Positions 13,420 to 49,653 of a stretch of DNA of 64,000 bases are shown in pieces. Source of the DNA: Alphaproteobacteria bacterium (GTDB lineage Bacteria > Pseudomonadota > Alphaproteobacteria > Rs-D84 > CACZYB01); contig WQWV01000001.1 in assembly GCA_009785175.1 (NCBI GenBank), positions 60,963-124,962 on the forward strand, read 5' to 3'. Made by a program: the position numbers and the translations under genes. Each line of letters begins with the position of its first letter. Positions within the stretch are counted from its first letter, which is position 1. The notes under the pieces are model-generated. The model saw only the letters and a list, made by a program, of their open reading frames with translations, did not search any database and had not been told where the DNA came from.

Positions 13420-13474
13420 ACTCCAAGAAAGTAAATTTTGACGAAAAATCAACCCTATGGGGGGGGGTAGCTCA

Positions 13475-14266
13475 ATGAAGATAGGTATATTTGATTCCGG
13501 CCTTGGCGGCCTTATCGCCATGCGCGCCGTGGTCGAGACGCTGCCTACATACGACTACGTCTATATCGGCGACACGGCGAACCTTCCCTACGGCTCCCGC
13601 TCGCGCGAGAAGATTCTGCAATACACGGAAAAATGTATTGATTATCTTTTCCGCGAGCACGATTGCAAGATCGTCCTCATGGCATGCAACACCGCGGCCA
13701 TAGCTGCGCTTCGATACCTACAAACCGAATACCTTCCGAAAAACTACCCCGACCGCCGCGTCCTGGGCATTATAATTCCTACCATCGAGGCGGCGCTCGA
13801 GACCGGCGCGCAAGACATAGGCCTGATCGCCACGGTTTCCACCACCAACTCCAAAGTCTATGAAAAAGAGCTCCAGAAAATAAATCCCAACATCAAGATT
13901 TCAAGCGTCCCCGCGCCCCTTCTTGTGCCGCTCATAGAATACGACGGCGACAAATACGCCAAGGATATCATCAAGGATTACCTGGCCAAACTTCCGCCCG
14001 TCAAGGTGCTTGTCTTGGGCTGCACGCACTATCCCATGTATAAGGATCTGTTCCGAAAGATGCTCCCTGATACCAAGGTCATATCCCAAGACGAAATCCT
14101 TCCCGAGAAAGTCGCCGACTACCTTGCGCGCCACGACGAGATCAGGACGAAGCTCTCCCACGGCGGCACCAAGACGTTTATCTTTACGGATATAACTCCG
14201 AACTATGTGGCCACCGCCTGCCGGCTTTTCGGACACAAGATAGCGTTTACGAAGACGGAACTTTAG
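13475..14266 (+). CDS. murI: glutamate racemase
   Basis: Start chosen at MKIGIFDSGLGG (13475); MACNTA...GCTHYP active-site regions are present. An in-frame ATG-G9 (MGGGSS) 18 nt upstream could extend the N-terminus. Confidence 0.9.
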   Translation: MKIGIFDSGLGGLIAMRAVVETLPTYDYVYIGDTANLPYGSRSREKILQYTEKCIDYLFREHDCKIVLMACNTAAIAALRYLQTEYLPKNYPDRRVLGIIIPTIEAALETGAQDIGLIATVSTTNSKVYEKELQKINPNIKISSVPAPLLVPLIEYDGDKYAKDIIKDYLAKLPPVKVLVLGCTHYPMYKDLFRKMLPDTKVISQDEILPEKVADYLARHDEIRTKLSHGGTKTFIFTDITPNYVATACRLFGHKIAFTKTEL

Positions 14267-14274
14267 CATACATA

Positions 14275-14395
14275 AACTCTCAGCGAGTTCACTCGCTGCG
14301 CGCTGGACGCCGCCCCCACGCATGGAGAGCCGCGCCCTTCGGGACACGCCGCCTATGCTCGGCGTCTTGGCTTGCTAGCCCCCTAAAATTATGCT
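14275..14395. repeat. ~100-bp intergenic repeat, copy 2
   Basis: CTCAGCGAGTTCACTCGCTGCGC...ACGCCGCCCCCACGCA, matching 6322-6420. Confidence 0.7.
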
Positions 14396-14400
14396 ATAAT
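14372..14400 (+). promoter_or_regulatory. sigma70-like promoter TTGCTA-17-TATAAT upstream of the hypothetical-virB11 operon
   Basis: Exact 17-nt spacer. ATG is 10 nt after the -10. Confidence 0.5.
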
Positions 14401-14410
14401 AATACCCGCC

Positions 14411-15172
14411 ATGCGAACCCTTGATATCTACAGCGCTATAAAAGATTTCATCTCCGCCTCGCCGCGCGAAATCCAAACTCCTGGCGCTATGGTAAAGGAC
14501 ATAGCCAAAGCCATAAACGACATTTCGGCAAACGCCGATAAAATCGATGACGAAGCGCTTTCGCTTACCGCAAGCCTTTTGTGGATAAGCGCGATAAAGA
14601 AAAACGGATATAAAATCGCAGCCGCGGGCGCCGCCGCTAAAAATCTCTTCCCATTCGCGCCCGACCTCAAGATCGCCACGTTTGCCAAGGCGATCGACAT
14701 AGCAACCGGCATAGCAAACGATTCCTCGATAATAGCGTTCGTGCCCCTAAAAGGAAGCCGCGACATCTGGTGGTCGAACATGCTCTTGCCCGACGCCGCG
14801 GTCAAGGTGATCGCCAAGCTCGGAGCCCCCGGCACGGAATCATACCTGATCGCGAACGAGCCCAAGGCGTTTGGCTTCGACCGCTCCATCATAGTCGTCA
14901 AAACGGACAAGACGCTATCGGCCAACGACCTTACCACCACTCTCCACAAACTCAAAATTCCTATATACAGGATCACCTCGCAAACCGCGCTTGTCGACGG
15001 CTCGGTCGCGCATGTGGTCGAAATTTCGCACCCGATAAAATCCGCCAACGCCGGCATCTTCAAGCTCAAGGACGAAATCGGCGGCGTGAAATTGAAAGTT
15101 TCCGGCTACCTCGGCGGCTACTCGGAACCGTGCACACAAAAAACCGAAATCTTGAAATTCAAGGTGGCATGA
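14411..15172 (+). CDS. hypothetical soluble protein co-transcribed with virB11
   Basis: 253 aa, no TM segment, no recognisable motif. Stop overlaps the virB11 start (ATGA). Confidence 0.55.
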   Translation: MRTLDIYSAIKDFISASPREIQTPGAMVKDIAKAINDISANADKIDDEALSLTASLLWISAIKKNGYKIAAAGAAAKNLFPFAPDLKIATFAKAIDIATGIANDSSIIAFVPLKGSRDIWWSNMLLPDAAVKVIAKLGAPGTESYLIANEPKAFGFDRSIIVVKTDKTLSANDLTTTLHKLKIPIYRITSQTALVDGSVAHVVEISHPIKSANAGIFKLKDEIGGVKLKVSGYLGGYSEPCTQKTEILKFKVA

Positions 15173-16140
15173 TGAGCGCGAACGAAGTCCTGAAAGAAGC
15201 CATCCTTCCGCTCGCCAACTGGTATAACCAGAAGGGCATAGAGGAGGTCGCGATAAACGAGCCGGGCGTAGTGTGGCTTCGCGAACGCGGACGGCTTGAA
15301 TCCCCTTGGACGAAGCAGGCGGACCCGAAATTAACACAGTCGTATCTTATGGACATTCTCCACATCATCGCGAATGTGAACGAGCTTCCGTTCGATCCCG
15401 CGAACGGCATTCCGACCGTATACGCAAGCCTTCCGGGCGAGCATAGATTTTCTGCGATTGCCGGCAAGAACGTCAATGCCTCAAGCGATAATCCCGAGGG
15501 CGGCATAGCGATTGCGATTCGAGTAAAGGACGCCGACGCCCACTTCGACTTCAAAAACTATGGACTGATTAAGGGCGAGGCGCTGCGCGAAATCACGCAA
15601 AAAACCAAGAAGCTTTCCGACGACCCCTACACGCGACTTATGCAGCTGATCAGAGATGGCGAGAACATTTTGATCTCCGGCGCGACGGCCACCGGTAAAA
15701 CCACGTTCCTTAATAATATCCTGAAACTCCTTAATCCTAATATGAGGATTATCACGATCGAGGATACACGCGAACTTAATGTGCCGCAGGCCAACAAGGT
15801 CAACATCACGCTCTCGCGCACACAGCAGACGAATATCTTTTCATACAAGGACGTGATAGATTTGGTCGTCCGCATGTCGCCCGATTCCATTATGGGCGGC
15901 GAGATTTCGACCGATAACGCGCAGGCCGTGTGGGAGCTTATGAACACCGGGCACAGCCACTTCTACGCCACGATCCACGCCGATTCGGCCGAGCAGGCCT
16001 ACCTTTCGTTTATCGATAGGATTCTGCACGTTTTCCCGAATCTTGATCAAAAACGCACTATGGAGCAGATGCGGAAATCGCTGCATGTCGTGCAAATCGG
16101 ACGCGAAGGCGGCCTAAGGCAAATTACGGAAATTATCTAA
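15169..16140 (+). CDS. virB11: type IV secretion ATPase VirB11 family
   Basis: EEVAINEPG N-terminal domain. Walker A ISGATATGKTT, RIITIEDTRELNVP, SIMGGEIS and GHSHFYATIHADSAEQAY all align with A. tumefaciens VirB11. The ORF-track merge 14770..16140 is an artefact. Confidence 0.85.
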   Translation: MMSANEVLKEAILPLANWYNQKGIEEVAINEPGVVWLRERGRLESPWTKQADPKLTQSYLMDILHIIANVNELPFDPANGIPTVYASLPGEHRFSAIAGKNVNASSDNPEGGIAIAIRVKDADAHFDFKNYGLIKGEALREITQKTKKLSDDPYTRLMQLIRDGENILISGATATGKTTFLNNILKLLNPNMRIITIEDTRELNVPQANKVNITLSRTQQTNIFSYKDVIDLVVRMSPDSIMGGEISTDNAQAVWELMNTGHSHFYATIHADSAEQAYLSFIDRILHVFPNLDQKRTMEQMRKSLHVVQIGREGGLRQITEII

Positions 16141-16142
16141 GT

Positions 16143-16176
16143 TCGTCATTCCGGCCCACGCGCCGGAATCCAGTTA
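16143..16176. repeat. palindromic element GTCATTCCGGC-n6-GCCGGAATCCAG (unit A family)
   Basis: 8-bp stem ATTCCGGC/GCCGGAAT. The same family occurs at 37795-37900, 50059-50095 and 61255-61335. Confidence 0.7.
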
Positions 16177-16238
16177 GAATATCTACCTACTGCTCTTTCC
16201 TTTCCCGCGCGCTAAAATAAAACGCACAAGGAGGACTC

Positions 16239-16568
16239 ATGAACAAATACATCATCGCCATAGCTCTAATCACACTCGGCGCCTGCGCCACCAAGAAAGA
16301 ACCGAAATGCCCGGTTGCCGAGATTCCCGACGCCGGCCAACTTGCCGAAATCTTCGCGCGCACCGCGGTTGATACGTTCTGTGAAATAAGGGATTGCAAC
16401 AACCTCCCCGAACGCGAGGCGGTGATAACTGCGAATGTCCGGTTTAGCAAGCGCATCGAACCGCCGGTCGAGGGCTGCGACATCGACGCGCAATCCGCCG
16501 AGGTTAATTATACCTACGAGATAAGACAGGACGGGCATATACTCCGCTCGGGCAACGCAAGCAATTAA
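16239..16568 (+). CDS. small lipoprotein (lipobox LGAC), Cys-rich
   Basis: Good ribosome-binding site AGGAGG; signal peptide MNKYIIAIALITLGAC. Confidence 0.6.
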   Translation: MNKYIIAIALITLGACATKKEPKCPVAEIPDAGQLAEIFARTAVDTFCEIRDCNNLPEREAVITANVRFSKRIEPPVEGCDIDAQSAEVNYTYEIRQDGHILRSGNASN

Positions 16569-17810
16569 TTAACTGCGTTGTTTCTCATACGGCTGAGCCA
16601 CGCCGGGAAATTTTGCCACCTTGTCCACCGGAAAAACCTTCTCGAGCTCGCGTTTGACTTCTGCGATGAATTCTGGATTGTTCCACCCTTTGATACCTTC
16701 GGCGATGGTAAGCGCGACAAGGTTGTTCTGGTCCTTCTTGTCGGCGTTTTGATAAAGCCCCTTGGCGGTCATGTTGGATTTCCCCTCGAAAGCCCAGCGC
16801 ATGTTAGTGTTCAGCAAATCGTCCGTGATAAGGATATTCCCGTCGTCGTCAAGCATAAGCTCGAGCTTGCCGTCGATAACCAACGCACCGTCATAGAACT
16901 CGCCCGGGATAACTTCGGCCTTGCCGCCCACCATGCGGGTCTTTGGGAACTTGGTTTTCGAGCAAGCGATTTTAATCGCGGTAAGAGCCCTTAGCACCAT
17001 AAGGCGCGCAGCCCTCTCCTGCTCCGGCGACATATAATCCGCAGGCGCAAGCCGGCTTGTCCCTATCATCTGCCGCCCGCCGCCATCGCGCATTTTGAAA
17101 AGTATTCCGTCCTTGCGGTCGATATAGCAGATGGGCTTGGATATATCCTGTCGTCTAAGTCTGTCGTGCAACTCCCATACGTTCGCGTCGTCCCTGCTTT
17201 GCATCAAAAGCGGATCGTCGTAGGTGAATTTGGTCGGCTCCTTGGTCGCCCCGTCGAAATAACGCGGGTCGTTCTTCACGCTTGATTCGGATACAAGGTC
17301 GAGTTCTCCGTCCGGCTTTACGATTACGCATTTCTTGTGGAAAAGTTGGATAACCGGCTCTTTGAAGGGGTGAACCTTCTTGTCAAGGCCGACGTATTTG
17401 GTGCTTGGCTGAACTTGCGAATGATTGCCCTGGCCGTCCTTCTCTCCGTAAAGCCATGGATAGCGGGACACCAAAGTCGCCCGCGCGCACACGCCGAAAC
17501 ACACAACCACTTCTTGGTTGAATGGCATTCCCATTTTGTGGATAAGATGGTTGCCCTTCGTGCCCGCATAGCTTGTCGCGAAACCAAGCCCGTTCAAAAG
17601 TCCGAACATAATGCTGTTTTGGACAAGCTCGTTCTGGACTTTGCCCGCGTTTTCTTCGGTGCCCGCGCCCGACGCGGTGATGTCCATGCCCTTCGATTCG
17701 AACGCGACATATTTCGGGTTCGAGGTTTTGCGTATGCGCTTCGTCTTCCCGCTCTTTATTTCTTCAAGTATTTCAATCTGGCCAAGGGGATCGTTCGACA
17801 CGTTTCTCAT
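16569..17810 (-). CDS. hypothetical protein (413 aa), no recognisable domain
   Basis: Start chosen at MRNVSNDP (17810), which has the ribosome-binding site GAAAGG. Soluble, Asp/Lys/Gly-rich. Confidence 0.45.
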   Translation of the reverse strand: MRNVSNDPLGQIEILEEIKSGKTKRIRKTSNPKYVAFESKGMDITASGAGTEENAGKVQNELVQNSIMFGLLNGLGFATSYAGTKGNHLIHKMGMPFNQEVVVCFGVCARATLVSRYPWLYGEKDGQGNHSQVQPSTKYVGLDKKVHPFKEPVIQLFHKKCVIVKPDGELDLVSESSVKNDPRYFDGATKEPTKFTYDDPLLMQSRDDANVWELHDRLRRQDISKPICYIDRKDGILFKMRDGGGRQMIGTSRLAPADYMSPEQERAARLMVLRALTAIKIACSKTKFPKTRMVGGKAEVIPGEFYDGALVIDGKLELMLDDDGNILITDDLLNTNMRWAFEGKSNMTAKGLYQNADKKDQNNLVALTIAEGIKGWNNPEFIAEVKRELEKVFPVDKVAKFPGVAQPYEKQRS

Positions 17811-17920
17811 GATTTTTGCCTTTCTTTGTTTCCCCCCGGGTTGGATTTTATAGAGTAGGCACCTCAAAAGCAATAAAAATATAAATTGCTTTCGCCGCGA
17901 TTCGCCTGTATGTTATAAGC

Positions 17921-18256
17921 ATGGCTACAAACAAAGATTTTTTCGATCATGTCTTGGATACCCTAAGTCCCGCGGGCGATATTTCATACAAGAAGATGTT
18001 CGGCGAATACGGCGTTTATAAAAACGGCAGGATGATAATGCTTGTCTGCGACAATACGGTGTTTGTGAGACAGTTGCCCGAAGTCGCCGCGGTATTCGCG
18101 AAATACAAGGTAAGGCCGGAAAGCGAAGTTCCATACGAAGGCGCGAAAGAATACTTTATCGTTGATATGGACAACCAACCGCTGGCCTGCGATCTGGCTG
18201 AACTCCTGTCCCGTATTCTGCCCCTACCGAAACCGAGAAAGAAGAAATCGGCATAG
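17921..18256 (+). CDS. TfoX N-terminal domain protein
   Basis: KKMFGEYGVYKNGRMIMLVCDNTVFVR matches the TfoX_N consensus. Confidence 0.65.
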   Translation: MATNKDFFDHVLDTLSPAGDISYKKMFGEYGVYKNGRMIMLVCDNTVFVRQLPEVAAVFAKYKVRPESEVPYEGAKEYFIVDMDNQPLACDLAELLSRILPLPKPRKKKSA

Positions 18257-18995
18257 CGCCCAAATCCATTTTCGCATACCCCTCGGACGCAAGCAACTGC
18301 GCCAACCCCGCGCTGTTCATAATTATAATCTCCGTATCTTTTCCGCGCGATTGATGAAACGCATTGGACACGTTTGTGCCGTGAATAACCTGAAGCCCGC
18401 CTGTGCCGGGAATTGATAATACTTTCGTGTGGTTAACGATCAGCGTGTGGTTGCCAAGGTCCATTACGCTTCGCCCGTCCGTCGAGGAATAAGCCAATCC
18501 CATAGAATTTGAAAAATACAGCGATTCGCTTGTTATGAATTTATCTTGGGCAACGCGCTGCACGCGCCGTATTTTCGTAATGGACACAGCCACGTTGTCA
18601 TAGGGTATGGCGGCAAGCCGCTCTATGAAATCCAATGGCAGCCCGTCGTCGTTGTCGATTCTAAAAGTAATAATGCGCCCACCGCGCAAATCCTCGGGAA
18701 TAGGCATGTTTCCACCCGGGACAAACACGTTCCGCACAAAGGGAAACTCCTTCTCAAGCGCCGCGAACAAAGCCCTCTTATCGGCCGGCATTTTATCCGA
18801 ATGATAGACCAGAAGCACAAAGTTTTTATCGCTCTGCGCCGCGAAACTGCGTAAAGTTATCCCACGAAACATGGCCATGCGTTCGGAAAAATATGGCTCC
18901 TCGAAAACATTAAAAAAGCCATAGTCCGGGTGGTCCTTTTTGAAAGAGTCCGCAACGGAATACCTGACCATTCCTATTATATTATTTTGCGACAT
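18156..18995 (-). CDS. hypothetical protein, possible glycosyltransferase-like (putative rhamnosyltransferase family)
   Basis: 279-aa ORF. Its 3' ~100 nt overlaps tfoX-N antisense, so the C-terminus is uncertain. Confidence 0.4.
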   Translation of the reverse strand: MSQNNIIGMVRYSVADSFKKDHPDYGFFNVFEEPYFSERMAMFRGITLRSFAAQSDKNFVLLVYHSDKMPADKRALFAALEKEFPFVRNVFVPGGNMPIPEDLRGGRIITFRIDNDDGLPLDFIERLAAIPYDNVAVSITKIRRVQRVAQDKFITSESLYFSNSMGLAYSSTDGRSVMDLGNHTLIVNHTKVLSIPGTGGLQVIHGTNVSNAFHQSRGKDTEIIIMNSAGLAQLLASEGYAKMDLGAMPISSFSVSVGAEYGTGVQPDRRPAVGCPYQR

Positions 18996-19163
18996 TGCAG
19001 CGCTCCTCGCAACCGGCTATGAACCATTTTTGGAAAAACGGCCTGAATATTTCCGGCCCGGCCTTGAAACAAAACAGTGCGGTCATCGCGGTCGCAAGCT
19101 GACCCCAATAGCGTAAAAATCCGTATCGTAAGTAGAAACCTGATAGTGTTCTAGGCATTTTCA

Positions 19164-19709
19164 TCATAGTTTATTTATGAATTTGAACACAGGGGTAATC
19201 CACCCCTGCCGCGGCGACAACTGTCCCGATTCTTTGAGTTTGATTATGTCGGTATAGGAAAGCCACGCTACGCCGTCGACCTCGGCATCGTTGAAACAAA
19301 GGTTCTTTATGTCGATGTTTTTCACAATTACGAAAAGATCGTACCAGTGCTTTTCCACCTTGTCCCCGGGCATGATGTCTTCGCGGAAAGAGGTAAGGAA
19401 ACGGAAGTCCTTGGCTTGTATTTTACGCTCGATTTGAAATCCGATTTCCTCGTTCATCTCGCGCATGACGGTTGTGATCGAATCCTCGCCGGCGGATACA
19501 TGCGCGGCAAGCGATATGTCCCAGACGCCGGGAAACACACGCTTGGACGCGCTCCTACGCTGCATGAGTATCTTGTTTTCGGAGTTGACTATCGCCACTA
19601 CCCCCCCCCGGTGCAAAAGGCCTTTTTCATGCGCCTCGTCGCGCGAAACTATGCGACCGTCCGGAACACCGTAGTCGTCCAAAACCTCGATCATTTCAGA
19701 TTCATACAT
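19164..19709 (-). CDS. Nudix hydrolase
   Basis: Nudix box AGEDSITTVMREMNEEIGF. Contains a G9 tract (plus-strand C9 at 19601-19609) encoding RGGV. Confidence 0.8.
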   Translation of the reverse strand: MYESEMIEVLDDYGVPDGRIVSRDEAHEKGLLHRGGVVAIVNSENKILMQRRSASKRVFPGVWDISLAAHVSAGEDSITTVMREMNEEIGFQIERKIQAKDFRFLTSFREDIMPGDKVEKHWYDLFVIVKNIDIKNLCFNDAEVDGVAWLSYTDIIKLKESGQLSPRQGWITPVFKFINKL

Positions 19710-20058
19710 CTTCTTCGCCTACCTCTTCATAAAGGAGTTTTTCGATCCGCGCGGCCGTCGCCTGCGACGTGTCGGCTTTGAACCGCAATTCCGGCGTCGA
19801 GCGCATTTTCATTTTGTTAGCAAGCTCGTATCGTATAGTTTTAGCCGCCACATTCAAAGCCGCTACAACCTCGTTCACATGCGATTCCACAAGCGTCGAA
19901 ACGAACACCACGGCGTGTTCATAGCCGCGCGAAGGCCGCACCTCGTTGATCGAAAACATCCTCCCGCCGACGACGATCCCCTCGAAAAATCCCTCGCCTT
20001 GTAATCCGGCCAAAGCTCGTTTCATCGATTCGCCTATCTGAAGATGTCGCATATTCAT
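19702..20058 (-). CDS. rbfA: ribosome-binding factor A
   Basis: 118 aa; PELRFKADTS C-terminal motif. Confidence 0.75.
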   Translation of the reverse strand: MNMRHLQIGESMKRALAGLQGEGFFEGIVVGGRMFSINEVRPSRGYEHAVVFVSTLVESHVNEVVAALNVAAKTIRYELANKMKMRSTPELRFKADTSQATAARIEKLLYEEVGEEDV

Positions 20059-20066
20059 ACCGACCC

Positions 20067-20755: not shown

Positions 20756-20801
20756 GAACGTAATCCCCATACGGCCATTATATAGCGGCTGCGGAAAATA
20801 A

Positions 20802-27152: not shown

Positions 27153-28120
27153 CTATCTTAAGATAAACGTTTCCCCTTCATCGGCGATTTTTTCACCATC
27201 ATGATAGCATGCTTTTCTAACTCCGGTCGCACTCAATATCCGAATGACACCATGGCTAGCGAAAGTGGAGTCCTCGCATTTTATGACTTCATTTTTACGG
27301 AAATGATGGCCGGCAAGCAACCCATAGGGCATCTTATACGGCTCGGTAAACGTCCCCCATACTTCCCCTTCCTTTTTACCGAAGGTGGCGTCTTTGTTAT
27401 AACAGAGCTTTTCAACTCCGGGAATCGGGTCGCCGAAAGTCGCATTGTTGCATGTTATCGAACCGGGCCCTACTGTTTTCCAATTCGCTTTTCCATATAC
27501 TATGCCTACGACATGGTTGGGGTCGCCGCCTACTCTTACTTCCCTATGATTGCCCGCCGGAACAGGCGCAGCCACCCTCGCTTCTACATACGACGCACGC
27601 CGGGAGGACGTACCGGCGCCTTCATCTTCAACGTCTGCCAGTGCCACTCGCCGCCGCCGCGCTTGACCTTCGGCTTCTACTATCCTCAGGTTATTAAACA
27701 GCTCCTGCTCCAACTCGTTATACTTTCCCTCAAGCGCGTTAAGCCAACCTTCGATGCCGGCAAGCCTTCCCTCCAACTCCGGCGGTACGGAGGGTGTCTG
27801 CGGCATGTTCGCGATTTGCGATTTAAGCGCCGAGATTTCGGATTCAAGCGCGGTTATGCGTTGATTCGCCCCGCCGCCCTGCTGACTGGTTTCGCGGGTT
27901 CCTTGGCCATGATTGGTCTTGCGAACCTTTCTGCCGGAGTTGCCGGCCTTGGCATTCGACGTCCTCTGATTGCCGGCATTGGTTCTTCCGCCGGAATTGC
28001 CTGCCTTACGCCGCTGCTGCTGTGCGAATAAATCCTCGGCCATTAATGAAAGCAAAAGAAACGCTATAAGGAGAAGTTTACCCCCCCCCGCACAAATCGC
28101 ATATTTTTGTTGAAAAGCAT
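27153..28120 (-). CDS. phase-variable secreted coiled-coil / Cys-module protein, paralog 1 (phase OFF: frameshift at the G9 tract)
   Basis: The downstream frame (ORF track 27153..28055, TTG start) encodes ...GGGKLLLIAFLLLSLMAEDLFAQQ. The upstream ATG at 28120 (ribosome-binding site GGGAG) reads MLFNKNMRFVRGGV and stops. One extra G in the tract at 28081-28089 would fuse the two frames. Confidence 0.6.
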
Positions 28121-36507: not shown

Positions 36508-37329
36508 ATGCTTGAAAAAATTTTAGAATTCATGAAATCCGCCGGCGAGATCGCGATGAATAATTATGGTCGCACGGATAACTCGGAATTCAAGTCCGAA
36601 GAAGCGCACGATTTGATAACAATCACCGACCGTGCGATCTCCGACCTTTTTCAAAAATTCATAGCCGATAACTTCTCCGATCTCGACTATTGCATAGTCG
36701 ACGAAGAAAGCATGGACAAACTGACCGTGGGGGGGGGTAGTCCGTTCGATGAAATCGCGAAACACGAATGGGCGTTCGTCCTTGACCCGATAGACGGCAC
36801 AGTCGGTTATGCGCTTGAAATCCCCATGTTCGGAATTTCTCTTGGCGTGCTTAAAAACGGCAAGCCCTATTGCGGAGCCATATACGCCCCGGCGCTTGGC
36901 GAGCTTGTCTATTGCGATACCGAACAGGCGTTCTGGATTAAAAACAATACCAAAATCGAACTTAAACCCTCAGAGCTGGGCAAACTTCCCATAATATTCA
37001 GCCTTGGCCGATATGTGCGCCAAAGCGACAATTACGAACCCCGATATCTTCAAGCCGGTTATAACAGCATGACCACGCACTTTCTTTACATGGCGACCGG
37101 CCGCGGTCGGTGCAACTATTTCAAGTGGCATATATGGGACATGGGCGGCGCCTGGGCGATAATGAAATTCCTCGGATTCGAGTTCATGGATTTCAAGACC
37201 GGCAAAATCTTGGAAAATCTTTCAGCCGACAAATTCAATGACAAATTGAAAATCAAGAATGTGCATATCGTCTGCAAACCCGCCGATTTCGAATTTTTCA
37301 AAGGCATAGCCGAGGAAACGGGAATATAA
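36508..37329 (+). CDS. inositol monophosphatase (SuhB/CysQ) family protein
   Basis: DPIDGT motif. An in-frame G9 tract at 36729-36737 encodes VGGGS. Confidence 0.75.
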   Translation: MLEKILEFMKSAGEIAMNNYGRTDNSEFKSEEAHDLITITDRAISDLFQKFIADNFSDLDYCIVDEESMDKLTVGGGSPFDEIAKHEWAFVLDPIDGTVGYALEIPMFGISLGVLKNGKPYCGAIYAPALGELVYCDTEQAFWIKNNTKIELKPSELGKLPIIFSLGRYVRQSDNYEPRYLQAGYNSMTTHFLYMATGRGRCNYFKWHIWDMGGAWAIMKFLGFEFMDFKTGKILENLSADKFNDKLKIKNVHIVCKPADFEFFKGIAEETGI

Positions 37330-40967: not shown

Positions 40968-41552
40968 CTACTTCAATTTCAAGTATTGCTCGTTCTTTAT
41001 ACGCCTCTGCATACACTCGGGCAACGCGGGCACGCCGCGGAATGCAAACCCCCTGCCCCTTTTTGGCGCAAGCATAAGGTAATCTGTCTCCGATTTATCG
41101 GGCGTTTCATAAAGGACTTCCACGATTTCCGGCACATGCTCTATGGTGCGAAAACCCGCGAAAAGAGAATCGTTCACTCCCACAAACCCACAGCCCTCGT
41201 TTTCATGCAAAAATTTATGTATATCGACGCCCGCCTCTAACAACTTGCCCGAAACCTCGAACGGCATGGCAAAGGCCTCGTCTATCGCGGCGACGACATC
41301 GGGGCTTCCGGGATCGATTCCACCCATAACCTTCGAACCCACGTTTTCCATGACTATGCAGCTGATAAGGAATAGCTCCATGGACTTATCGTTTTTACCC
41401 CCCCCCAAGTGGTCGGCCATAACGGTCAATATCTGGGCATAGCTGTCATGTTTAAGGCCGTGTTGAAGATCGCGCAAAGACGAAAAAACCCGCCTAGCCG
41501 TGCGAAGATAGTCGGCCTTCATCTCTGTAAATATTTCAGTATTATTTTTCAT
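40968..41552 (-). CDS. hypothetical cytoplasmic protein containing an in-frame G9 tract
   Basis: 194-aa ORF. Plus-strand C9 at 41398-41406 encodes LGGGK. Confidence 0.5.
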   Translation of the reverse strand: MKNNTEIFTEMKADYLRTARRVFSSLRDLQHGLKHDSYAQILTVMADHLGGGKNDKSMELFLISCIVMENVGSKVMGGIDPGSPDVVAAIDEAFAMPFEVSGKLLEAGVDIHKFLHENEGCGFVGVNDSLFAGFRTIEHVPEIVEVLYETPDKSETDYLMLAPKRGRGFAFRGVPALPECMQRRIKNEQYLKLK

Positions 41553-41767
41553 ATCCCCATATTAGACTAAATATAATAAATGTCAAGAAACTTTCACATT
41601 GAAAAAAACCGCGCGGGGATATACAATATAAATGAAAAGCCAAGCCTTCTCAGTTTCGAGCATATACGAAGGTTTGGAGCAAAAAATAATCCGCAATGGA
41701 CTTATTGCTTCCATGAGGAATTATTTTTTGTGAAAATCAAGTAGATGCCGAAAATGGGAAGGCTTAA

Positions 41768-43101
<1,334 letters not shown>

Positions 43102-43118
43102 GTGGCAATTATACCAAA

Positions 43119-43877
43119 TCAAAATACATATCTCAAGCCCAAAAGAACTTCCTCGGATATCATATCATATTTTATTTCCGAAACCGAGTTGGCATAGGCG
43201 CCCCCGCCCAACACTTCGGCCATGCCGCGCGCAGTCAAATCTACCTGGCCAAGATTGTTATATCGGTATCCAAAGTCGAGTATGAAGCTCTGGCTTACTA
43301 CGAACGCTATGCCTCCGCCTATGTTGTATGCGAAATTCCTTATTGTCTCGGAATCATCCATAAAATATTCCGTATCATTTACCAAGTCGACCGAAGACCA
43401 CGCTACATGGCTTTTGATTTTGGCAAATCCCACGCCTGTTCCTAGATATGGCCTGAACCTTCGGGTAAGCGGCATGTCGTAATAACCGTTAAGAAACCAT
43501 GTCGAGGTCTTGACCCTCAACTTTACCGGATTGCCGTCGTATGCAGGATTTGAAGTAGCCATATCTGCGTGTTTACCGGGACCGAAACCGTATTCCGCCT
43601 CTATGCGCAAAATACCCCTTGTGGAACGCGAGAAGCTCTGGAAACCTACGGCGACATTTCCGCGCACGGAATCAAGCCATTCGTTTCCTATGATTGTTGA
43701 ATCCGGTGTAAGAAGAAATAGATTCGGCGCGGCGCCTTGGCTTGGTGTATAGTCGGTAATTTCTGTATCTCCGATTTTTATATCGGCCCACGATACCTTA
43801 CCGCTTATATATATTTCGGCCGATGCCTGAAAAGCAGGCACCATCGCAAGCACAAAGGCCAGTATTATTCTAAGCAT
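43119..43877 (-). CDS. outer-membrane beta-barrel protein (OmpA-like / Omp25-type surface antigen family)
   Basis: Signal peptide; amphipathic strands; terminal LRYVF. Confidence 0.6.
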   Translation of the reverse strand: MLRIILAFVLAMVPAFQASAEIYISGKVSWADIKIGDTEITDYTPSQGAAPNLFLLTPDSTIIGNEWLDSVRGNVAVGFQSFSRSTRGILRIEAEYGFGPGKHADMATSNPAYDGNPVKLRVKTSTWFLNGYYDMPLTRRFRPYLGTGVGFAKIKSHVAWSSVDLVNDTEYFMDDSETIRNFAYNIGGGIAFVVSQSFILDFGYRYNNLGQVDLTARGMAEVLGGGAYANSVSEIKYDMISEEVLLGLRYVF

Positions 43878-44079
43878 GTTTTACCCCTCGAACGAATACT
43901 ATCGGGGGACGAAGAAAAAATCATTAGGAGGAAATTTCCATACTGAATGACGTAAAAGATGATCTGATAAACTTGTCAAATCGTGCGAACTCGTCAGTTT
44001 GTAGCAGATACTAGGAAGCATACTCGACCGATAAAATTTTCAATCTGACGAAGTAGATTATGCGAAATGACAAGTTCCC

Positions 44080-46125
44080 CTAGAAGCCATCCAAATTGAC
44101 CGCTTCCTCCTCGTCATCGCTGATGCGTAGCATTATGTCGCGGGCAAGGTATACTTGGATTCGCGTGCCGGCGGGAACGGTGAAAGGCTTGCGCTGGCGA
44201 AGCGATTGATGGATCATCTTTTGCGCCATGGCTTTCCAATTCTGCTGGATTTCCATCTTCATTTTGTCGCGCGGGGTCATGTTGAAGAAAGCGGTCTCGG
44301 CCATATCCGGATTCCATGTTGCCACCCCGGTAAGCTCGTCCCCGAACACTTCATCCTCAAAGACCGCGCCGCCAAGCGTAGCCCACTGCCCGTCCGTCAC
44401 CCTCTGTGTGACCGCGAATTGGGACGAGGTGGGGAACAGCGCCTCCATCGCGACCGGCAAAGCGCTATAAAGAAGCGGCCGCATGAAGAAGCTCTTCATG
44501 TATTCTGGATCGACGCGCCCCGGCACTCCGTCGCGTCCCTGCGCATCCGTGGTCGAGGTTTCGGGACCGGTGCCGTCGATGGTATTGCCGGCAAGCTTGA
44601 ACTCGGCGCCGTCGGGACGGATAAGACGTTCCCAGCCAAGCTGGACGCGCACGATTGTTTCAAGCGGGTTGTCGAGAGCTATGTTCGGCGGTTCGGCGAA
44701 ACCGATAAGCTGGCTTCCGGCGGGAACCACGATGGTGCGCCCGTCGCCGCCGTATACGTTTCTCTCGACGGTGGCCAAAGCCATAAGCTGGTCTGGCGCC
44801 GTTCCGTCGACAAGCTGGCTGACGTATATGGGCCTGACAAGCACGGCTGGTATGGGCTTGCCCTGACGCAGCACAAAGCGCTCGTCCTTGGGGTTCGAGG
44901 ACACATAATCCTTGGAGTCGATTGTAAATGGCACAAGCCCCTTCTGTCCGCGGCCGCGTATACCAAGCGGATCGGGCAGGCGGTGGCAGTCGTCCTCGTC
45001 TTCGCACGGACGGCCCACACCGCCCTCTTTGGCGATCATGCGATTGTTGATGACGTCGTCTATATTGGGGTTGAAGTTGTTTGCGTTGCGAGCATTCAAT
45101 ACTTCGTCGAGTATAGGAAGCACGAGGTTGATGCGGCGATCATGCGCCTTGGCCTGGTCATGCACGATACCCTTGCCTATGATCTGACCGGTGCGGGACG
45201 CGATGACCATGCCGTCGTCCTGAAGCGTGCCGATGACCTGGCGACAGTTGGGAGAGTATACGTTGCGGTTGCCCTGTGCCCATCCGATGAACACGCCCGA
45301 GAAATCGTAAACCTTGCTTGCGAAATTGCGACAGCTCATGCCCTGCGCGATTGCGTCCGAAATCTGGGGTTCCGGCGCGGCGACCTGGGCTGACCGCACG
45401 GGCTGAGGAGTCGGCACAGGCTGGGACTCCCACGAAGGCTCGGCAAAATCCTCGAATTCGTTTTCCTCCTCGAAAGGATTAAACGCGGGTGGCGCAGGAG
45501 GAGCCGCAGGAGCCGGCGCGGTAAATGAGACTTCGACGGGTATAGAGAGCGTCATGCTTGCGGCGTCGGTCTCGTCCTCGGGCACATATTGAACCTCCAC
45601 GCTAAACGATCGGCTAAGGGTTTCATAGGGCACGAAGGAAACGGTGATGCTGCACCGATTGAAAAGGTCTATGCCGTCAAGCTCGACACAGTCGTTGCCG
45701 ATGGATACGCCGTCGACCGACTGGCTTGCGAAGACATTCATCACGCGGACTGCGCGCTCCATTCCCGAGATTTGGATCTGATCTAGCACCGCCTCGCCGG
45801 TATTGCTTCCCCAAAGCGATATGCGCGAGGGTGTGGCGGATAGAAGCGCCGTGGCGGCGGCTGGCACGGAAACTGCGGCGGGCGCTCCGGCTTCTTCTGA
45901 TACGGATTCGGCAACGGCAAAGGGATTTGTGTTCTTTGTCTTCTCCTCGCCGCCGAACATTACGACTCCGGCGATGAATACGCCAAGCATAGCGAAGGAC
46001 ACAAGCATCAGCACGCGGCCTGATCTGGCCTCGCCGGCACGGATGTCGCTCTGCATCGCGGGCGCGACTGCGCTTGCGTTCGGCGCCGCTTCCTGATTAT
46101 GAGCTTTCCTTCTTATCCCGAACAT
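44080..46125 (-). CDS. virB10: type IV secretion system VirB10/TrbI family protein (long form, Pro-rich linker)
   Basis: N-terminal cytoplasmic segment plus TM; Pro-rich region APAAPPAPPAF; C-terminal TrbI-like domain (IVVPAGSQLIGFAE...). Confidence 0.8.
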   Translation of the reverse strand: MFGIRRKAHNQEAAPNASAVAPAMQSDIRAGEARSGRVLMLVSFAMLGVFIAGVVMFGGEEKTKNTNPFAVAESVSEEAGAPAAVSVPAAATALLSATPSRISLWGSNTGEAVLDQIQISGMERAVRVMNVFASQSVDGVSIGNDCVELDGIDLFNRCSITVSFVPYETLSRSFSVEVQYVPEDETDAASMTLSIPVEVSFTAPAPAAPPAPPAFNPFEEENEFEDFAEPSWESQPVPTPQPVRSAQVAAPEPQISDAIAQGMSCRNFASKVYDFSGVFIGWAQGNRNVYSPNCRQVIGTLQDDGMVIASRTGQIIGKGIVHDQAKAHDRRINLVLPILDEVLNARNANNFNPNIDDVINNRMIAKEGGVGRPCEDEDDCHRLPDPLGIRGRGQKGLVPFTIDSKDYVSSNPKDERFVLRQGKPIPAVLVRPIYVSQLVDGTAPDQLMALATVERNVYGGDGRTIVVPAGSQLIGFAEPPNIALDNPLETIVRVQLGWERLIRPDGAEFKLAGNTIDGTGPETSTTDAQGRDGVPGRVDPEYMKSFFMRPLLYSALPVAMEALFPTSSQFAVTQRVTDGQWATLGGAVFEDEVFGDELTGVATWNPDMAETAFFNMTPRDKMKMEIQQNWKAMAQKMIHQSLRQRKPFTVPAGTRIQVYLARDIMLRISDDEEEAVNLDGF

Positions 46126-46135
46126 CTGCCGCCTT

Positions 46136-47590
46136 TTATTGTGTGCGAACTATGTTGCATGATTGGCCGTGGCGCGATAGCGACTGGCATATCTCGTTCG
46201 CTTTTTCGATTCTCTCGAACGGACCTATGCGAAGGCGATAGAACTCGCCTCCGTAATAACGCTGCTGCCCAAGCTCGTCGACGCCGCTTGTTTCCACGCT
46301 ATAGAACGGAGTGAACTCGTCCATGAACGGCAAACGTTCGGTAAGGGTCAGCCATAACCCCTCGAGCTCGCTAACGGAACGCCCGCGGAAGATTTCGATT
46401 GAAAGCGCACCGTTGTTTTGACGCACAAGCGGCACGAAGTGATTCGAATGCCGCGGTGCAGGGCATGTGGGACACGCTGCCTGAGGAGCGATCGGAGCCA
46501 TCGCGAATCCGGGTATAGGCTGGCTGAATTGGGTCCACTGTCCGCCCTGGACACCGCCGCCGAAGCCGCCGTTAAATCCGCCGCCAACAGCGATGCTGCC
46601 GCGACCGGGCGCATTTCCGGCCACGCTTGCCACCGCAATCATATCCATCGGTGGCGGAGGGTTGGAAAGCAAATAAGGTTTCGAGCGCAGCTTGATGCAA
46701 ACCAAACGTCCGCCCGAGCGAAGCACCAAATCGCCGATAGCTTCGACGACCAAAAGGCGCGACTGCGGCCCCTCGGTCCTGAATCCCACGGGCGATTCGC
46801 CGTCTTCGACAAGCAACGACACGACCGGCCGCTGATTCATGTTAAGCGCCTTCTCTCCGAAATCGATATAGGTGAAGACCTGGTCGCGCCATACGCGTTC
46901 CGGCGCGATTACGAAATCGTCTGGGTTGGGGATGAAGATGTCAAGGTCGAAACGGAATTCCGTAGGGTCGACGGGAACCGATTTGATCCAACCGAAGTCC
47001 TCGCCTTCCCATGTCGGGTCTGATACGCCGCCGCCGAAGCTCCTGCCTCCCATGACCGATCGCATTCCCATGAACGAGCCGTCCGCGCCCCCGCCTGCCG
47101 AAGCTCCTCCGCGTGCGCCGCGCGCGAAACGGGCTGGCACGTTGACATCTACGATGGACGATGTGATTCTATCGGTCGTGAATGGTTCCGAACGCAAATA
47201 GAAAACATACTTGTTTCCGCTCTGCCCGAATATGAAAAGGTTTGTATCGGCCATCGAGCGTCCGTCGACCGGCGAAATCATGAATACGTTTTTCTCGACC
47301 GGTCGCCCCTCGAAGAAGTCCCTATCGCCGACGTATGCGTCCCTGATGGTTTCCCACTCCGGAAAGTTGATGACGGTAAGCATTCCGTCCCTAAGCCTAA
47401 GCGGTATGACCGCGCCTGGTTCCCAGTTTACGCGTTCGAATCCGGGCTTGGTCTGGTTTTCGCCCATATTCTGAAGCGGGTGGTCCCACGCGGTCTGTGT
47501 TCCGAAACCTGCTCCGGGCACCATTTCCTGCGCGGATACGACAAACGGAAATGCTACGGTCGCAAGCAATAAGCTAATCGTTTTTTTCAT
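46136..47590 (-). CDS. virB9: VirB9/CagX/TrbG family protein with Gly-rich inserts and a C-terminal SPOR-like domain
   Basis: VirB9 N-domain (VINFPEWETIRDAYVGDRDFF...NLFIFGQSGNKYVFYLR) and C-domain (FVIAPE...VCIKLRS). The tail QRYYGGEFYRLRIGPFERIEKANEICQSL resembles SPOR. Confidence 0.75.
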   Translation of the reverse strand: MKKTISLLLATVAFPFVVSAQEMVPGAGFGTQTAWDHPLQNMGENQTKPGFERVNWEPGAVIPLRLRDGMLTVINFPEWETIRDAYVGDRDFFEGRPVEKNVFMISPVDGRSMADTNLFIFGQSGNKYVFYLRSEPFTTDRITSSIVDVNVPARFARGARGGASAGGGADGSFMGMRSVMGGRSFGGGVSDPTWEGEDFGWIKSVPVDPTEFRFDLDIFIPNPDDFVIAPERVWRDQVFTYIDFGEKALNMNQRPVVSLLVEDGESPVGFRTEGPQSRLLVVEAIGDLVLRSGGRLVCIKLRSKPYLLSNPPPPMDMIAVASVAGNAPGRGSIAVGGGFNGGFGGGVQGGQWTQFSQPIPGFAMAPIAPQAACPTCPAPRHSNHFVPLVRQNNGALSIEIFRGRSVSELEGLWLTLTERLPFMDEFTPFYSVETSGVDELGQQRYYGGEFYRLRIGPFERIEKANEICQSLSRHGQSCNIVRTQ

Positions 47591-47796
47591 GTAATCTCTC
47601 CACCTTCCGATTTGACTTCCTTTTTAAGGAATTTGCAAGCGTTTTTTGTAAAACCCAATAAAAAAACCAAGCCCTCTCAAATCGCGCGAGGAACAAGGTT
47701 TTAAGGGAAGTTTTGAGGGAGTGGACTTTATCGCCTCCATGACCGAAAGACTTGCCCGCGAAAACCTCCGCTCGTTCGTGCGTATTTCAGGGGGCG
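47591..47796. repeat. intergenic modular repeats upstream of virB9 (modules CCTCAAATCGnGCGAG, GGTTTTAAGGG, GCGTATTTCAGRGG)
   Basis: Modules are shared with 48433-48618 and partly with 58325-58420. Confidence 0.6.
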
Positions 47797-48432
47797 TTAT
47801 ATGGCGCGATAGGAGACAACACGGAAACCAAGGGGATTGCGCCAGGCCTGCTCGCCGGTGCGCTGCTGCTCGCCCTGCTCGAATTCGACCTTGATTTCTA
47901 TGGTCTTGCTGATGGTCTTGGTTTCCTCGGAATTAAGGCTTGTGGCCTCGATGTTTACGGGCACCTCGAATATTTCGCGATTTGGCATAAAGCGTATTTT
48001 CGGGACATCAACGGTGGCTATCATTTTTATGTCGCCGCGCGGCCTGATTCTGGCCTGGAACTCGCTCGAGCTTGCAAACTCTTCCCATGCCTCCGGCGCA
48101 GTCTGAAGCCTAAGGTCGCTTGCCCGACCGAAAAGCACTCGCGCCATTTCCCGCTCGGGGATAAGGGATTCGCGCGTCTCGACGTAATTTATGATCATGT
48201 TGCGCGCTATTGTGTTGCCAAGCTGTCCTGGGGCAAGCGTGCGCGGCGCGCGTATGACGCTCACCGTATCGGCGCTCGTATTCCCCTCGACAAGGAAAGC
48301 TTCGTATTTCACACCCGGCTGGATGCGCTCGTATGCGAAAACAAGGATGATAAGAGCGATCGCCACCAAAAAGAAAAAGAATCCGTGGGTTCTTAGAATC
48401 CAAAGATACCTGCGCTCGTCGACCGACCTCAT
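47797..48432 (-). CDS. virB8: type IV secretion system VirB8 family protein
   Basis: Short cytoplasmic N-terminus, one TM helix (FFFFLVAIALIILVFAY), periplasmic NTF2-like domain. Start at 48432 has ribosome-binding site GGAGGG; alternative ATG at 48495. Confidence 0.7.
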   Translation of the reverse strand: MRSVDERRYLWILRTHGFFFFLVAIALIILVFAYERIQPGVKYEAFLVEGNTSADTVSVIRAPRTLAPGQLGNTIARNMIINYVETRESLIPEREMARVLFGRASDLRLQTAPEAWEEFASSSEFQARIRPRGDIKMIATVDVPKIRFMPNREIFEVPVNIEATSLNSEETKTISKTIEIKVEFEQGEQQRTGEQAWRNPLGFRVVSYRAI

Positions 48433-48618
48433 TGAAAAACCCCCTCCTATGGCAATCATAAATCGCCGTGCCAAGGTTTGCAAGGAAAAAAGCATAAACC
48501 CCTCAAATCGTGCGAGAAGCAAGCGTATAAGAAAAATCCCTTGGGAGTGTATACTGACATACATGACCAAGGGATTTATTCGAAATAGGCGCCGCTAATC
48601 GCGCGTATTTCAGAGGTT
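48433..48618. repeat. intergenic modular repeats upstream of virB8
   Basis: Same three modules as 47591-47796, in a different order, plus GACCAAGGGATTTAT, which is shared with 58326-58340. Confidence 0.6.
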
Positions 48619-49653
48619 TTAAGGGTTAAAGACGAAAGTATGTCCGCCGTCCGTAATATGCACCCCGTTTACATAACACCTATCGCCACGACCTCTTGCC
48701 GGATCGCCGAATGTGGCGTCGTCGCAAGAAATCGTAGAATGCCTTGCGAATCCTCTTTTCCTAAGCGATTGGCCGTAAAGCACGAATCCGTCGGCCGGCA
48801 CGGTGAATGCCTCGCCTTGTGTGGCTATGTGTTCGCCATGCCTTGTAAAGCATATCTTTCTCTTGCCGTCGTTTTGGGAATTCCTTATCGGATCGTCGAC
48901 ACCAAGGTTTTGCTCCTGGCATATCATGGCCGAACCGGGCGTATGCGTGCTATGGCGAAGCGGACCGTATACGACCCATGTATCAAGCGCGGCCTGAGCG
49001 TGTCTTTGTGCCTCTTCCTGCTCTTGCATGAATTCGTTTACCCTTTGGGTCGAGGCGGCCGATTCACCTACGCTTGCCTTTGTGGCAAAAGCGGCGTTCG
49101 CATGCTTCTTGATTTCTATACCACGGTTGGCGAAGTCCTCAAGCATAGGATCATCCCAACCCGAAGGCTTCCTAAGATATCTGTTATCAAGCCCGGCTAC
49201 ATCGGTCTTAAGCTTGCTGACATCCGCCTGAACCGACGCGAACTGAGCGGCGTTCACGCTTGTTCCGGTGGTGGTGGCAAGGGTCGTGCGCCAGGTCTCA
49301 AGCGCGCCGATCCTTGAATCAAGCGACGTGGTCGAGGCGGCCCTGGCCTCGCCTTCGGTGGTTGAGGTGCCAAGCAGAGCCTCAAGCTGCTTCTTAAGTT
49401 CTGCGACTTCGGATTCTAGCGTCTGTATTCTCTCAGCAGCCCTCGAGGTGCCGCCGGTATTTGTAGTCGTGGCGCGCGGCTGCCTGCCCTGCTCTTTCCT
49501 ATTGGCCGAACCTCTGGCTGTGGTGCCGCCAGCCTTGCGGTGCCGCTGCTGTGCGGCAAGGTCTTCGCCCATAACCGAAAGTGCGAGGAACGCAATGAAG
49601 AAAAGCTTCACTCCCCCCCCCCACGAGAATTTTGTTTTTACGTCAAATAACAT
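48619..49653 (-). CDS. phase-variable secreted coiled-coil / Cys-module protein, paralog 2 (phase ON: G10 tract in signal-peptide codons)
   Basis: MLFDVKTKFSWGGGVKLFFIAFLALSVMGEDLAAQQ. Plus-strand C10 at 49613-49622. Ribosome-binding site AGGAGA. Central coiled coil; C-terminal CxnC...TFGDP modules; contains an RGD tripeptide. Confidence 0.75.
   Translation of the reverse strand: MLFDVKTKFSWGGGVKLFFIAFLALSVMGEDLAAQQRHRKAGGTTARGSANRKEQGRQPRATTTNTGGTSRAAERIQTLESEVAELKKQLEALLGTSTTEGEARAASTTSLDSRIGALETWRTTLATTTGTSVNAAQFASVQADVSKLKTDVAGLDNRYLRKPSGWDDPMLEDFANRGIEIKKHANAAFATKASVGESAASTQRVNEFMQEQEEAQRHAQAALDTWVVYGPLRHSTHTPGSAMICQEQNLGVDDPIRNSQNDGKRKICFTRHGEHIATQGEAFTVPADGFVLYGQSLRKRGFARHSTISCDDATFGDPARGRGDRCYVNGVHITDGGHTFVFNP

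Follow-up and report, generated by a model that had tools for sequence, protein, structure and literature searches.

Long G/C Tracts and the Genes That Carry Them

The subject of this study is a set of long G/C homopolymers, here called tracts, in a 64,000-nucleotide stretch of DNA (the window) from the metagenome-assembled genome (MAG) of an uncultured alphaproteobacterium (GenBank assembly GCA_009785175.1, contig WQWV01000001.1, positions 60,963 to 124,962 of the forward strand). Six G/C homopolymers of at least 9 nt are present in the window, five of 9 nt and one of 10 nt, and all six have their G run on the sense strand of the open reading frame (ORF) in which it lies. A first-pass annotation made from the sequence alone had counted seven tracts; six exist, and the six that it listed were exact in every coordinate and length. 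We compared the NCBI MAG with the assemblies ENA ERZ27264051 (MEGAHIT), Logan SRR5215205 and Logan SRR10512954, all of them short-read k-mer assemblies. The tracts and their genes, in window coordinates, are as follows.

13416..13478, + strand: upstream ORF encoding MNSKKVNFDEKSTLWGGVAQ followed by a stop codon (sequence read directly)
13459..13467, + strand: G9 tract, then TAG, inside the 20-codon upstream ORF and 7 nt before the murI start; G9 also in ENA and Logan
13475..14266, + strand: murI, glutamate racemase, 263 residues as annotated, tract-free (Pfam Asp_Glu_race; NCBI record MCL2438951.1)
19164..19709, - strand: divergent Nudix hydrolase, IDI/YfcD-like, under all equivalog cutoffs (domain and profile searches, alignment)
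19601..19609, - strand: G9 tract (C9 on the + strand), then TAG, at Nudix codons 33-36, in frame as HRGGVV; same length in ENA
27153..28120, - strand: paralog 1 (par1), 322 residues if the tract is G10, phase-OFF; signal peptide, basic low-complexity region, helical region and C-terminal module
28081..28089, - strand: G9 tract (C9 on the + strand), then TAA, in the signal-peptide region of par1, out of frame; G9 also in ENA and Logan
36508..37329, + strand: divergent IMPase-family phosphatase, 273 residues, between dprA and a GNAT acetyltransferase gene (domain and profile searches, alignment)
36729..36737, + strand: G9 tract, then TAG, at codons 74-77 of the IMPase-family gene, in frame as VGGGS; G8 in ENA ERZ27264051 and Logan SRR5215205
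40968..41552, - strand: orphan 194-residue protein FWD15_00565, with no Pfam or NCBIfam match
41398..41406, - strand: G9 tract (C9 on the + strand), then TAA, at codons 49-52 of the 194-residue gene, in frame as LGGGK; C9 also in ENA
48619..49653, - strand: paralog 2 (par2), FWD15_00600, 344 residues, phase-ON, directly upstream of virB8 and a TrbI/VirB10 gene
49613..49622, - strand: G10 tract (C10 on the + strand), then AGTGA, in the signal-peptide region of par2, in frame as WGGGV; G10 also in ENA and Logan

The first-pass annotation had read five of the tracts as in-frame triplets of glycine codons. That reading stood for the Nudix gene (RGGV), the IMPase-family gene (VGGGS), the 194-residue gene (LGGGK) and par2 (WGGGV). 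In its fifth case, the frame from an ATG followed by G9 at position 13457 does continue into murI as MGGGSS, although the annotated start of MurI is at 13475. The annotation had also missed that par1 is out of frame at G9.

Abundance and Length of the Tracts

Comparison with null models revealed that the tracts are far more numerous than composition predicts. Runs of five G or C residues occur 41 times in the window and a run of six once; none is 7-8 nt long, and the counts at 9 and 10 nt are five and one. The GC content of the window is 52.3% and its longest A/T run is 7 nt. The chance expectation had earlier been put at one or two long runs per 64 kb; the excess which that estimate implied is real, and the expectation is lower still, as simulation gave 0.07 runs of at least 9 nt per 64 kb with an order-3 Markov model and 0.5-0.6 with orders 0-1, against six observed. 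For an empirical background we took other bacterial contigs, 1.10 Mb in total, in which there is a single run of at least 9 nt (~0.06 per 64 kb). The census was extended to 95 kb, comprising the window and both flanks, in which there are eight tracts, the six of the window and two in a DHH-family gene of the right flank, a local density of ~1 tract per 12 kb. With the tracts masked before the models were trained, 0.03-0.13 runs of at least 9 nt were expected in these 95 kb. The first-pass annotation had proposed a genome-wide check of the run-length distribution; in the 95 kb, this distribution does not match a composition-based null. Runs of 6-8 nt were depleted in the same 95 kb, with 9-14 expected and three observed, one of the latter being a tRNA stem. 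The tract excess is thus ~100-fold over chance, and the gap at 6-8 nt is real. The earlier remark that lengths of 7-8 and of 11 or more are missing from the window was confirmed, although this is not an anomaly, being the same as in Campylobacter jejuni (PMC6321876, PMC8355987).

Within the 95 kb, only one G/C run is 8 nt long, a C8 at the 3' end (acceptor/T-arm) of tRNA-Ser(GGA), at 13279-13366 of the left-flank contig and ~8.2 kb left of the window, which we excluded as a contingency tract since it is structural. Searches of Rfam identified two tRNAs and no further RNA families, and Tandem Repeats Finder found no other type of simple sequence repeat (SSR).

The lengths at which G/C tracts are treated as hypermutable are at least 7 nt in PhasomeIt and at least 8 nt as validated in C. 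jejuni (PMC6321876), and all of the tracts are at or above both values (six of 9-10 nt in the window, two in the flank, and a G11 in a relative described below). In all seven genes with an intragenic tract, the tract is situated at 3-45% of the ORF length, and a change of +1 or -1 truncates the product in every variant. Six of the eight tracts have their G run on the presumed leading strand, a bias that is not significant.

Coding States of the Tract Genes

The two secreted paralogs represent opposite states of what appears to be one arrangement. At G10, par2 is in frame and reads MLFDVKTKFSWGGGVKLFFIAFLALSVMG, and a -1 slip at the tract gives GAG TGA. At G9, par1 is out of frame and yields only MLFNKNMRFVRGGVNFSL before a stop codon; its 322-residue ORF requires G10. 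The two proteins are only 27% identical, yet their genes have in common a conserved 5' module of ~190 nt that comprises promoter, GGAG and ATG as well as tract and signal peptide, and the place of the tract within the signal-peptide region is identical in both; for par1, the predicted promoter is TTGTCA-17-TATACT at 28176-28148. Exhaustive HMMER searches revealed a Cys-bounded module, CxNxxFGDPxxGxxKxC, at the C-terminus of both (CNNATFGDPxxGxxKxC in par1). In its longer form, C-x-N-x-x-F-G-D-P-x-x-G-x-x-K-x-C-Y, the module spans ~55 residues, is without a Pfam model, and is present in two copies each in par1 and par2. In secreted proteins of other organisms the same module has up to 10 copies; it is found in tandem in small secreted proteins, and also in large proteins with Ig-like, carbohydrate-binding module (CBM), fn3 and chitin-binding domains, a distribution that fits par1 and par2 being secreted binding proteins. 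The motif recalls the SUEL/rhamnose-binding lectins, to which the module may be akin. A word-indexed search with par2 returned only itself and the exhaustive HMMER search only the C-terminal module, and AlphaFold2 gave an unusable model for par2 and par1 (predicted local distance difference test score, pLDDT, of 42; predicted template modeling score, pTM, of 0.26).

The tract of the IMPase-family gene is the only one that differed in length between assemblies. In the MAG it is G9 and the gene is intact; in the G8 state the gene is split into a 94-residue product ending in LTVGGVVRSMKSRNTNGRSSLTR and a 160-residue C-terminal ORF, both of which are on record as separate proteins. Alignment to solved homologs places the tract in a variable loop directly before the WxxDPIDGT motif. 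In the Nudix gene, a -1 slip leads to an immediate TAG, and relative to a solved IDI homolog the tract residues are substituted without a change in length (HRGGVV versus HLAFSS). These placements had been described as unexpected ones in essential-looking coding sequences, a description that was mostly wrong, as the murI tract is outside the annotated murI coding sequence and both enzymes fall under the NCBIfam equivalog cutoffs. The Nudix protein scored 73 bits against a cutoff of 127 for IDI, and the IMPase-family protein 29-60 bits against 229-332 for SuhB, CysQ and HisN. Because these scores are far under every equivalog cutoff, the two proteins are, as judged from their profiles, divergent accessory hydrolases and not orthologs of IDI, SuhB, CysQ or HisN. 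Two competence-related genes are also in the window, dprA (35578-36498), which is immediately upstream of the polymorphic IMPase-family gene, and tfoX (17921-18256). The remaining intragenic tract of the window is in the 194-residue gene, where a +1 slip gives an immediate TAA; a word-indexed search of 5.8 billion proteins returned only this protein itself.

Tracts were also identified beyond the window, in two genes.

ENA ERZ27264051 k141_4350207, 7398-8253, ~8.7-9.6 kb past the right end of the window, poly-C on the sense strand: DHH-family phosphoesterase gene with two tracts
ENA ERZ27245258 k141_32571, 7618-8011, in a relative at 41% GC: G11 tract, then TAA, 33 codons into a small gene with a preceding Shine-Dalgarno sequence

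The DHH gene has a 284-residue ORF when both tracts are C9, and as assembled (C9 and C10) it is OFF. Its closest named relative is from a "Rickettsiales bacterium" MAG, and three of the seven tract genes (Nudix, IMPase-family and DHH) encode small-molecule phosphohydrolases. The contig of the relative, which is from a different sample, has exactly one long run, the G11, at which the small gene is OFF as assembled; at G10 it has an ORF of ~131 residues. These findings suggest that tract and flank (see below) are a trait common to related organisms. Orthologs of the DHH protein (63-38% identity) are without proline runs at both tract positions and unchanged in length, and the ortholog comparison advocated by the first-pass annotation had the same outcome for the Nudix and IMPase-family homologs, which have no Gly or Pro runs and no length change. 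The tracts are therefore lineage-specific, having arisen in situ by substitution at tolerant positions.

Reproducibility of the Tract Lengths

The ENA and Logan assemblies span essentially the whole window and differ from the MAG across ~64 kb by two single-nucleotide polymorphisms (SNPs) and one indel. The sole indel is in the tract at 36729, which is G9 in the MAG and G8 in ENA ERZ27264051 and Logan SRR5215205; the other five window tracts are identical in length in every assembly. The SNPs are at window positions 32880 (T/G) and 41186 (A/G) relative to ENA contig k141_3553212, the contig that has the G8 allele, and their presence beside it is a hint that two near-identical strains co-exist. 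The sample and run accessions gave no match in the literature. MurI had its best match among GTDB species representatives at 45% identity, and no close genome was found. A scan of metagenomes with Obg yielded one match of 76%, on a 3.5 kb contig without the tract regions, and others of at most 64%, and these contigs served only as compositional background.

Probable Buffering of murI against an Upstream Tract

The tract before murI differs from the others in that it is situated in a short leader ORF. The ATG of the upstream ORF overlaps the stop codon of the preceding 188-residue gene (ATGA, 13416-13419) and is preceded, 8 nt before it, by a GGAG Shine-Dalgarno sequence at 13404-13407. At G9, the TGA of the upstream ORF overlaps the murI ATG in turn (ATGA, 13475-13478), so positions 13404-13478 comprise a translational-coupling chain with two ATGA overlaps that leads from the 188-residue gene through the upstream ORF to murI. 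At G10 or G7, the upstream ORF is fused in frame with murI, and in the G8 and G11 states the TAG next to the tract terminates it, leaving 4 nt to the murI ATG. Hence, each of the three tract phases provides murI with a nearby termination/re-initiation route or a fusion route. In addition, the G run itself is placed like a Shine-Dalgarno sequence 7 nt upstream of murI and may act as one. Judging from this arrangement, murI is probably translatable at any tract length, the essential gene being buffered rather than switched. Since the tract sits in a translationally coupled upstream ORF it is probably not an ON/OFF switch, and the effect of its length on murI is probably modulatory. A promoter-spacer model for this tract was rejected, as the gap between tract and ATG is only 7 nt and has no -10 element.

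An Invariant Flank Downstream of the Tracts

All seven of the G9 and G11 tracts (five in the window, one in the DHH gene and the G11 of the relative) are followed on the G strand by TAR (TAG or TAA). Both G10 tracts, in par2 and the DHH gene, are followed by A plus a purine, which is equivalent to G9-[T>G]-AR. Every run has a pyrimidine immediately on its 5' side, and conservation extends no further than that base and the 3 nt on the 3' side. In the window, TA follows 4.8% of G3-6 runs, from which the binomial probability of the flank is ~2e-6 for the five window tracts and ~0.048^7, or ~6e-10, for all seven. The idea that TA is general after long G runs was rejected, since in the background contigs the share of runs with TA next to them was 3.4-3.7% for G3-5, 9% for G6 and 1 of 25 for lengths of at least 7 nt.

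For the tracts on the sense strand, TAR gives a stop codon directly after the run in one slipped frame. As the sole cause of the flank, such an "ambush" stop codon is weakened by one of the DHH tracts, which has the flank with its G strand antisense (chance probability of this single case, ~0.03-0.05), and a purely translational explanation is incomplete because TAR is present there also. Possibly, although we regard this as doubtful, Y-G(9-11)-TAR is a composite element that has arisen or been maintained as a unit. One version is a leaky OFF phase, in which the adjacent stop codon and the Shine-Dalgarno-like G run would permit a prfB-like +1 frameshift or re-initiation, so that a translational rheostat would be coupled to a heritable switch in the DNA. 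In the other, which would act at the level of DNA, template switching between tracts or a sequence-specific factor would install or homogenize the tract together with its 3' flank. Such an element, if it exists, would account for three observations: the unusual density of ~1 tract per 12 kb, the occurrence of tracts in genes of accessory metabolism and the recurrence of the flank in a relative at 41% GC.

Interpretation of the Tracts as Contingency Loci

We interpret the tracts as poly-G/C contingency loci that vary by slipped-strand mispairing, a reading to which we assign a probability of roughly 0.72. Both coding states were observed: par1 is OFF and par2 ON, the IMPase-family gene is ON in the MAG and OFF in the ENA and Logan assemblies, and the DHH gene and the 131-residue gene of the relative are OFF. 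Mononucleotide contingency loci were one of the options raised in the first-pass annotation, and this option is borne out by the ON/OFF paralogs, by G8/G9 being the only indel between assemblies, by the OFF genes in the flank and the relative, by the 5' placement of the tracts and by their peak at 9-10 nt. In the proposed mechanism, the nascent strand would slip on the homopolymer during replication with the gain or loss of one G, and this one-base change in the 5' part of an ORF would shift the frame, such that full-length and truncated products alternate reversibly and stochastically. We infer that this switching would be frequent, and it may provide adaptive variation of secreted lectin-like proteins and of accessory nucleotide/phosphate hydrolases in a probably host-associated alphaproteobacterium with a type IV secretion system (T4SS).

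The products of contingency loci are typically exposed at the surface or modify the surface or DNA, and the signal peptides and C-terminal module of par1 and par2 speak for the interpretation. Several findings weigh against it. Half of the tract genes (Nudix, IMPase-family and DHH) encode enzymes of cytoplasmic type and not classic surface structures. Variation was seen at one of eight tracts, in an organism present in only ~3-4 public datasets, and this G8/G9 difference could be fixed between two co-existing strains rather than a product of rapid switching, because two SNPs co-occur on the same contig. Ten predicted products of +1 or -1 changes (par1 ON, par2 OFF, Nudix OFF, the 194-residue protein OFF, IMPase-family G10 and the murI fusion) were absent from the protein collection by exact look-up. 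Furthermore, plain slippage leaves the invariant TAR flank unaccounted for. A phasome of the Campylobacter/Helicobacter type goes with the loss of a functional MutS/MutL mismatch-repair system; the ~95 kb of the genome that we read has UvrA and UvrD but neither mutS nor mutL, which at this coverage is uninformative.

Homopolymers are a known weak point of sequencing, and a platform-specific assembly error had been suggested for the tracts. That their lengths were systematically mis-called or inserted is very improbable: one tract is G8 in some assemblies and G9 in another, but the other five of the six agree between the NCBI MAG, the ENA MEGAHIT assembly and two Logan runs, that is, with three assemblers and at least two SRA runs. 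Random homopolymer mis-assembly is rejected because lengths agree across independent short-read assemblies. In addition, the tracts preserve reading frames, keeping long ORFs with conserved downstream domains intact, homolog alignments indicate no change in length, and neither the specific flank nor the 5'-proximal placement would result from such errors. A non-adaptive origin is a more substantial alternative, albeit an unlikely one. On this account the tracts are a mutational by-product in a host-restricted bacterium, where biased mutation and weak selection would give rise to homopolymers in decaying or dispensable genes, and where residual expression would come from transcriptional or ribosomal slippage and not from heritable switching. 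Such an origin accords with tracts in cytoplasmic accessory enzymes (Nudix, IMPase-family, DHH), with several tract genes being frameshifted, with the lineage-specificity of tracts that are missing from orthologs, and with an alphaproteobacterium that has a T4SS and whose DHH gene has its nearest named relative in a Rickettsiales MAG. It does not anticipate, however, a sharply bimodal length distribution in which 6-8 nt runs are depleted and there is no continuum, or matching tract positions preserved in the signal peptides of two paralogs of 27% identity, or the 5'-proximal position of all tracts, or a highly specific flank; nor are there long A/T runs (maximum 7) or a bias to AT in this DNA of 52% GC.

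The flank itself raises the further alternative that Gn-TAR is a composite signal, either a prfB-like +1 recoding site that is leaky in the "+1 G" state, or a motif for recognition or installation at the level of DNA. TAR follows seven of seven tracts as compared to 4.8% of runs in the window and 3.4-4% in the background, both G10 tracts retain AR in the form G9-[T>G]-AR, the flank recurs in the relative at 41% GC and also where the G strand is antisense (the first DHH tract, DHH-a), and the known prfB site likewise combines CTT_TGA_C with an upstream Shine-Dalgarno-like sequence (PMC3711429). However, a stop-codon reading is inapplicable to the antisense DHH tracts, conservation is limited to 3 nt on the 3' side and one pyrimidine on the 5' side, the tract positions are unrelated and inside unrelated ORFs, and the length polymorphism and OFF states are accounted for without such a signal, which we consider improbable.

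Genomic Setting and Implications

T4SS genes (VirB11-like T2SSE, VirB8, TrbI/VirB10 and VirB4/CagE) are scattered through the window (14770-16140, 43119-48432 and 61860-63971) and the right-flank contig k141_4350207 (12793-17790), a layout reminiscent of the split loci of Rickettsiales. Among the same intervals are genes for an outer-membrane protein with weak similarity to the rickettsial adhesin Adr, OmpA and PagP. A GmrSD-type (type IV restriction) gene and a 743-residue autotransporter with faint similarity to Chlamydia PMP proteins, both tract-free, are at 14030-18685 of the left-flank contig, 10-15 kb left of the window. The organism is probably host-associated. GC skew on the + strand is uniformly negative across the window and its flanks, gidA is in the window, and gidB-parA-parB is just past its right end; because of this skew and these genes, the region is probably near the replication origin and on one replichore.

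Simple-sequence contingency loci have been well studied in a handful of cultivable pathogens, and no poly-G phasome in this alphaproteobacterial group turned up in our literature searches. The present findings describe a dense tract set in an uncultured, T4SS-bearing alphaproteobacterium known from metagenomes only. They have a consequence for annotation, in that what such MAGs present as split genes or "frameshifted pseudogenes" (par1, the IMPase-family fragments, DHH) probably represents phase-OFF alleles and not the result of decay or assembly error. The two secreted lectin-like paralogs, one of them beside virB8 and virB10, and the three nucleotide/phosphate hydrolases represent candidate variable host-interaction factors, and murI is a possible case of an essential gene that is buffered against a slippery tract via coupled translation of an upstream ORF. 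Finally, the TAR flank, should it hold genome-wide, would represent a new rule on the origin of tracts or on the reading of the OFF state.

Comparison with Known Systems

Long homopolymers in host-restricted bacteria have a precedent in the insect endosymbionts, in which Tamas and colleagues reportedly described poly(A) tracts and rescue by transcriptional slippage in 2008. As in our window, long homopolymers are tolerated in functional genes of Buchnera and Blochmannia, and frameshifted copies may give some protein (PMC3017870). Those runs differ in being A/T runs of extremely AT-rich, degenerate genomes, where they are viewed as decay; the tracts described here are of G/C, limited in length, biased to the 5' part of genes and flank-specific. 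Treponema pallidum is an uncultivable, host-dependent bacterium with ~52% GC and, as in the DNA studied here, many G runs of at least 8 nt. Tract length there modulates the expression of outer-membrane protein genes (tpr genes, TP0126; PMC7864442). The T. pallidum tracts are mainly upstream and act on transcription, whereas seven of the eight tracts here are intragenic, putative frameshift switches.

The prfB-type +1 site resembles the tracts in that a stop codon comes right after a slippery codon and a G-rich, Shine-Dalgarno-like sequence lies just upstream (PMC3711429); in the "+1 G" state, the tracts here would read GGG GGG GGG UAR. It is a resemblance only, as the motif is also antisense in one gene, the ON genes as assembled need no shift, and orthologs are without the motif.

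Among the Neisseria loci, the pilC tract is in the signal-peptide coding region, and porA and opc have promoter tracts. The likeness to the paralogs described here is in a signal-peptide G tract that confers translational ON/OFF states, with paralogs in different phases (SSR overview PMC5084427, PMC5320596). However, par1 and par2 bear no relation to PilC, we found no promoter-spacer tract, and the murI leader tract is in a coupled upstream ORF and not between -35 and -10 elements.

A C. jejuni genome is ~1.6 Mb, such that its tracts amount to roughly one per 80 kb, as compared to ~1 per 12 kb locally in the region studied here. The median is ~20 tracts per genome (PMC6321876), and Campylobacter tracts are G9 in 53% and G10 in 26% of cases, with 82% in ORFs (PMC6321876). 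An insertion bias at G8 and a deletion bias at G11 and above hold the C. jejuni tracts at G9-G10, with switching at 1e-4 to 1.6e-3 per division (PMC8355987). The C. jejuni and C. coli phasome and the tracts of our window are alike in being composed of mostly intragenic G/C tracts with a 9/10 peak and few lengths of 7-8 or of 11 and above, in which a frameshift of +1 or -1 determines ON and OFF, with many loci per genome and many of them specific to strain or lineage (PMC6321876, PMC8355987). Beyond the density of tracts, the two differ in their hosts, which here is an uncultured alphaproteobacterium of 52% GC and not an AT-rich epsilonproteobacterium, and in their targets, which are capsule, lipooligosaccharide (LOS) and flagellar glycosylation genes in Campylobacter and Nudix, IMPase-like and DHH hydrolases together with orphans here. 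The remaining difference is the TAR flank on the 3' side of every G9 and G11 tract.

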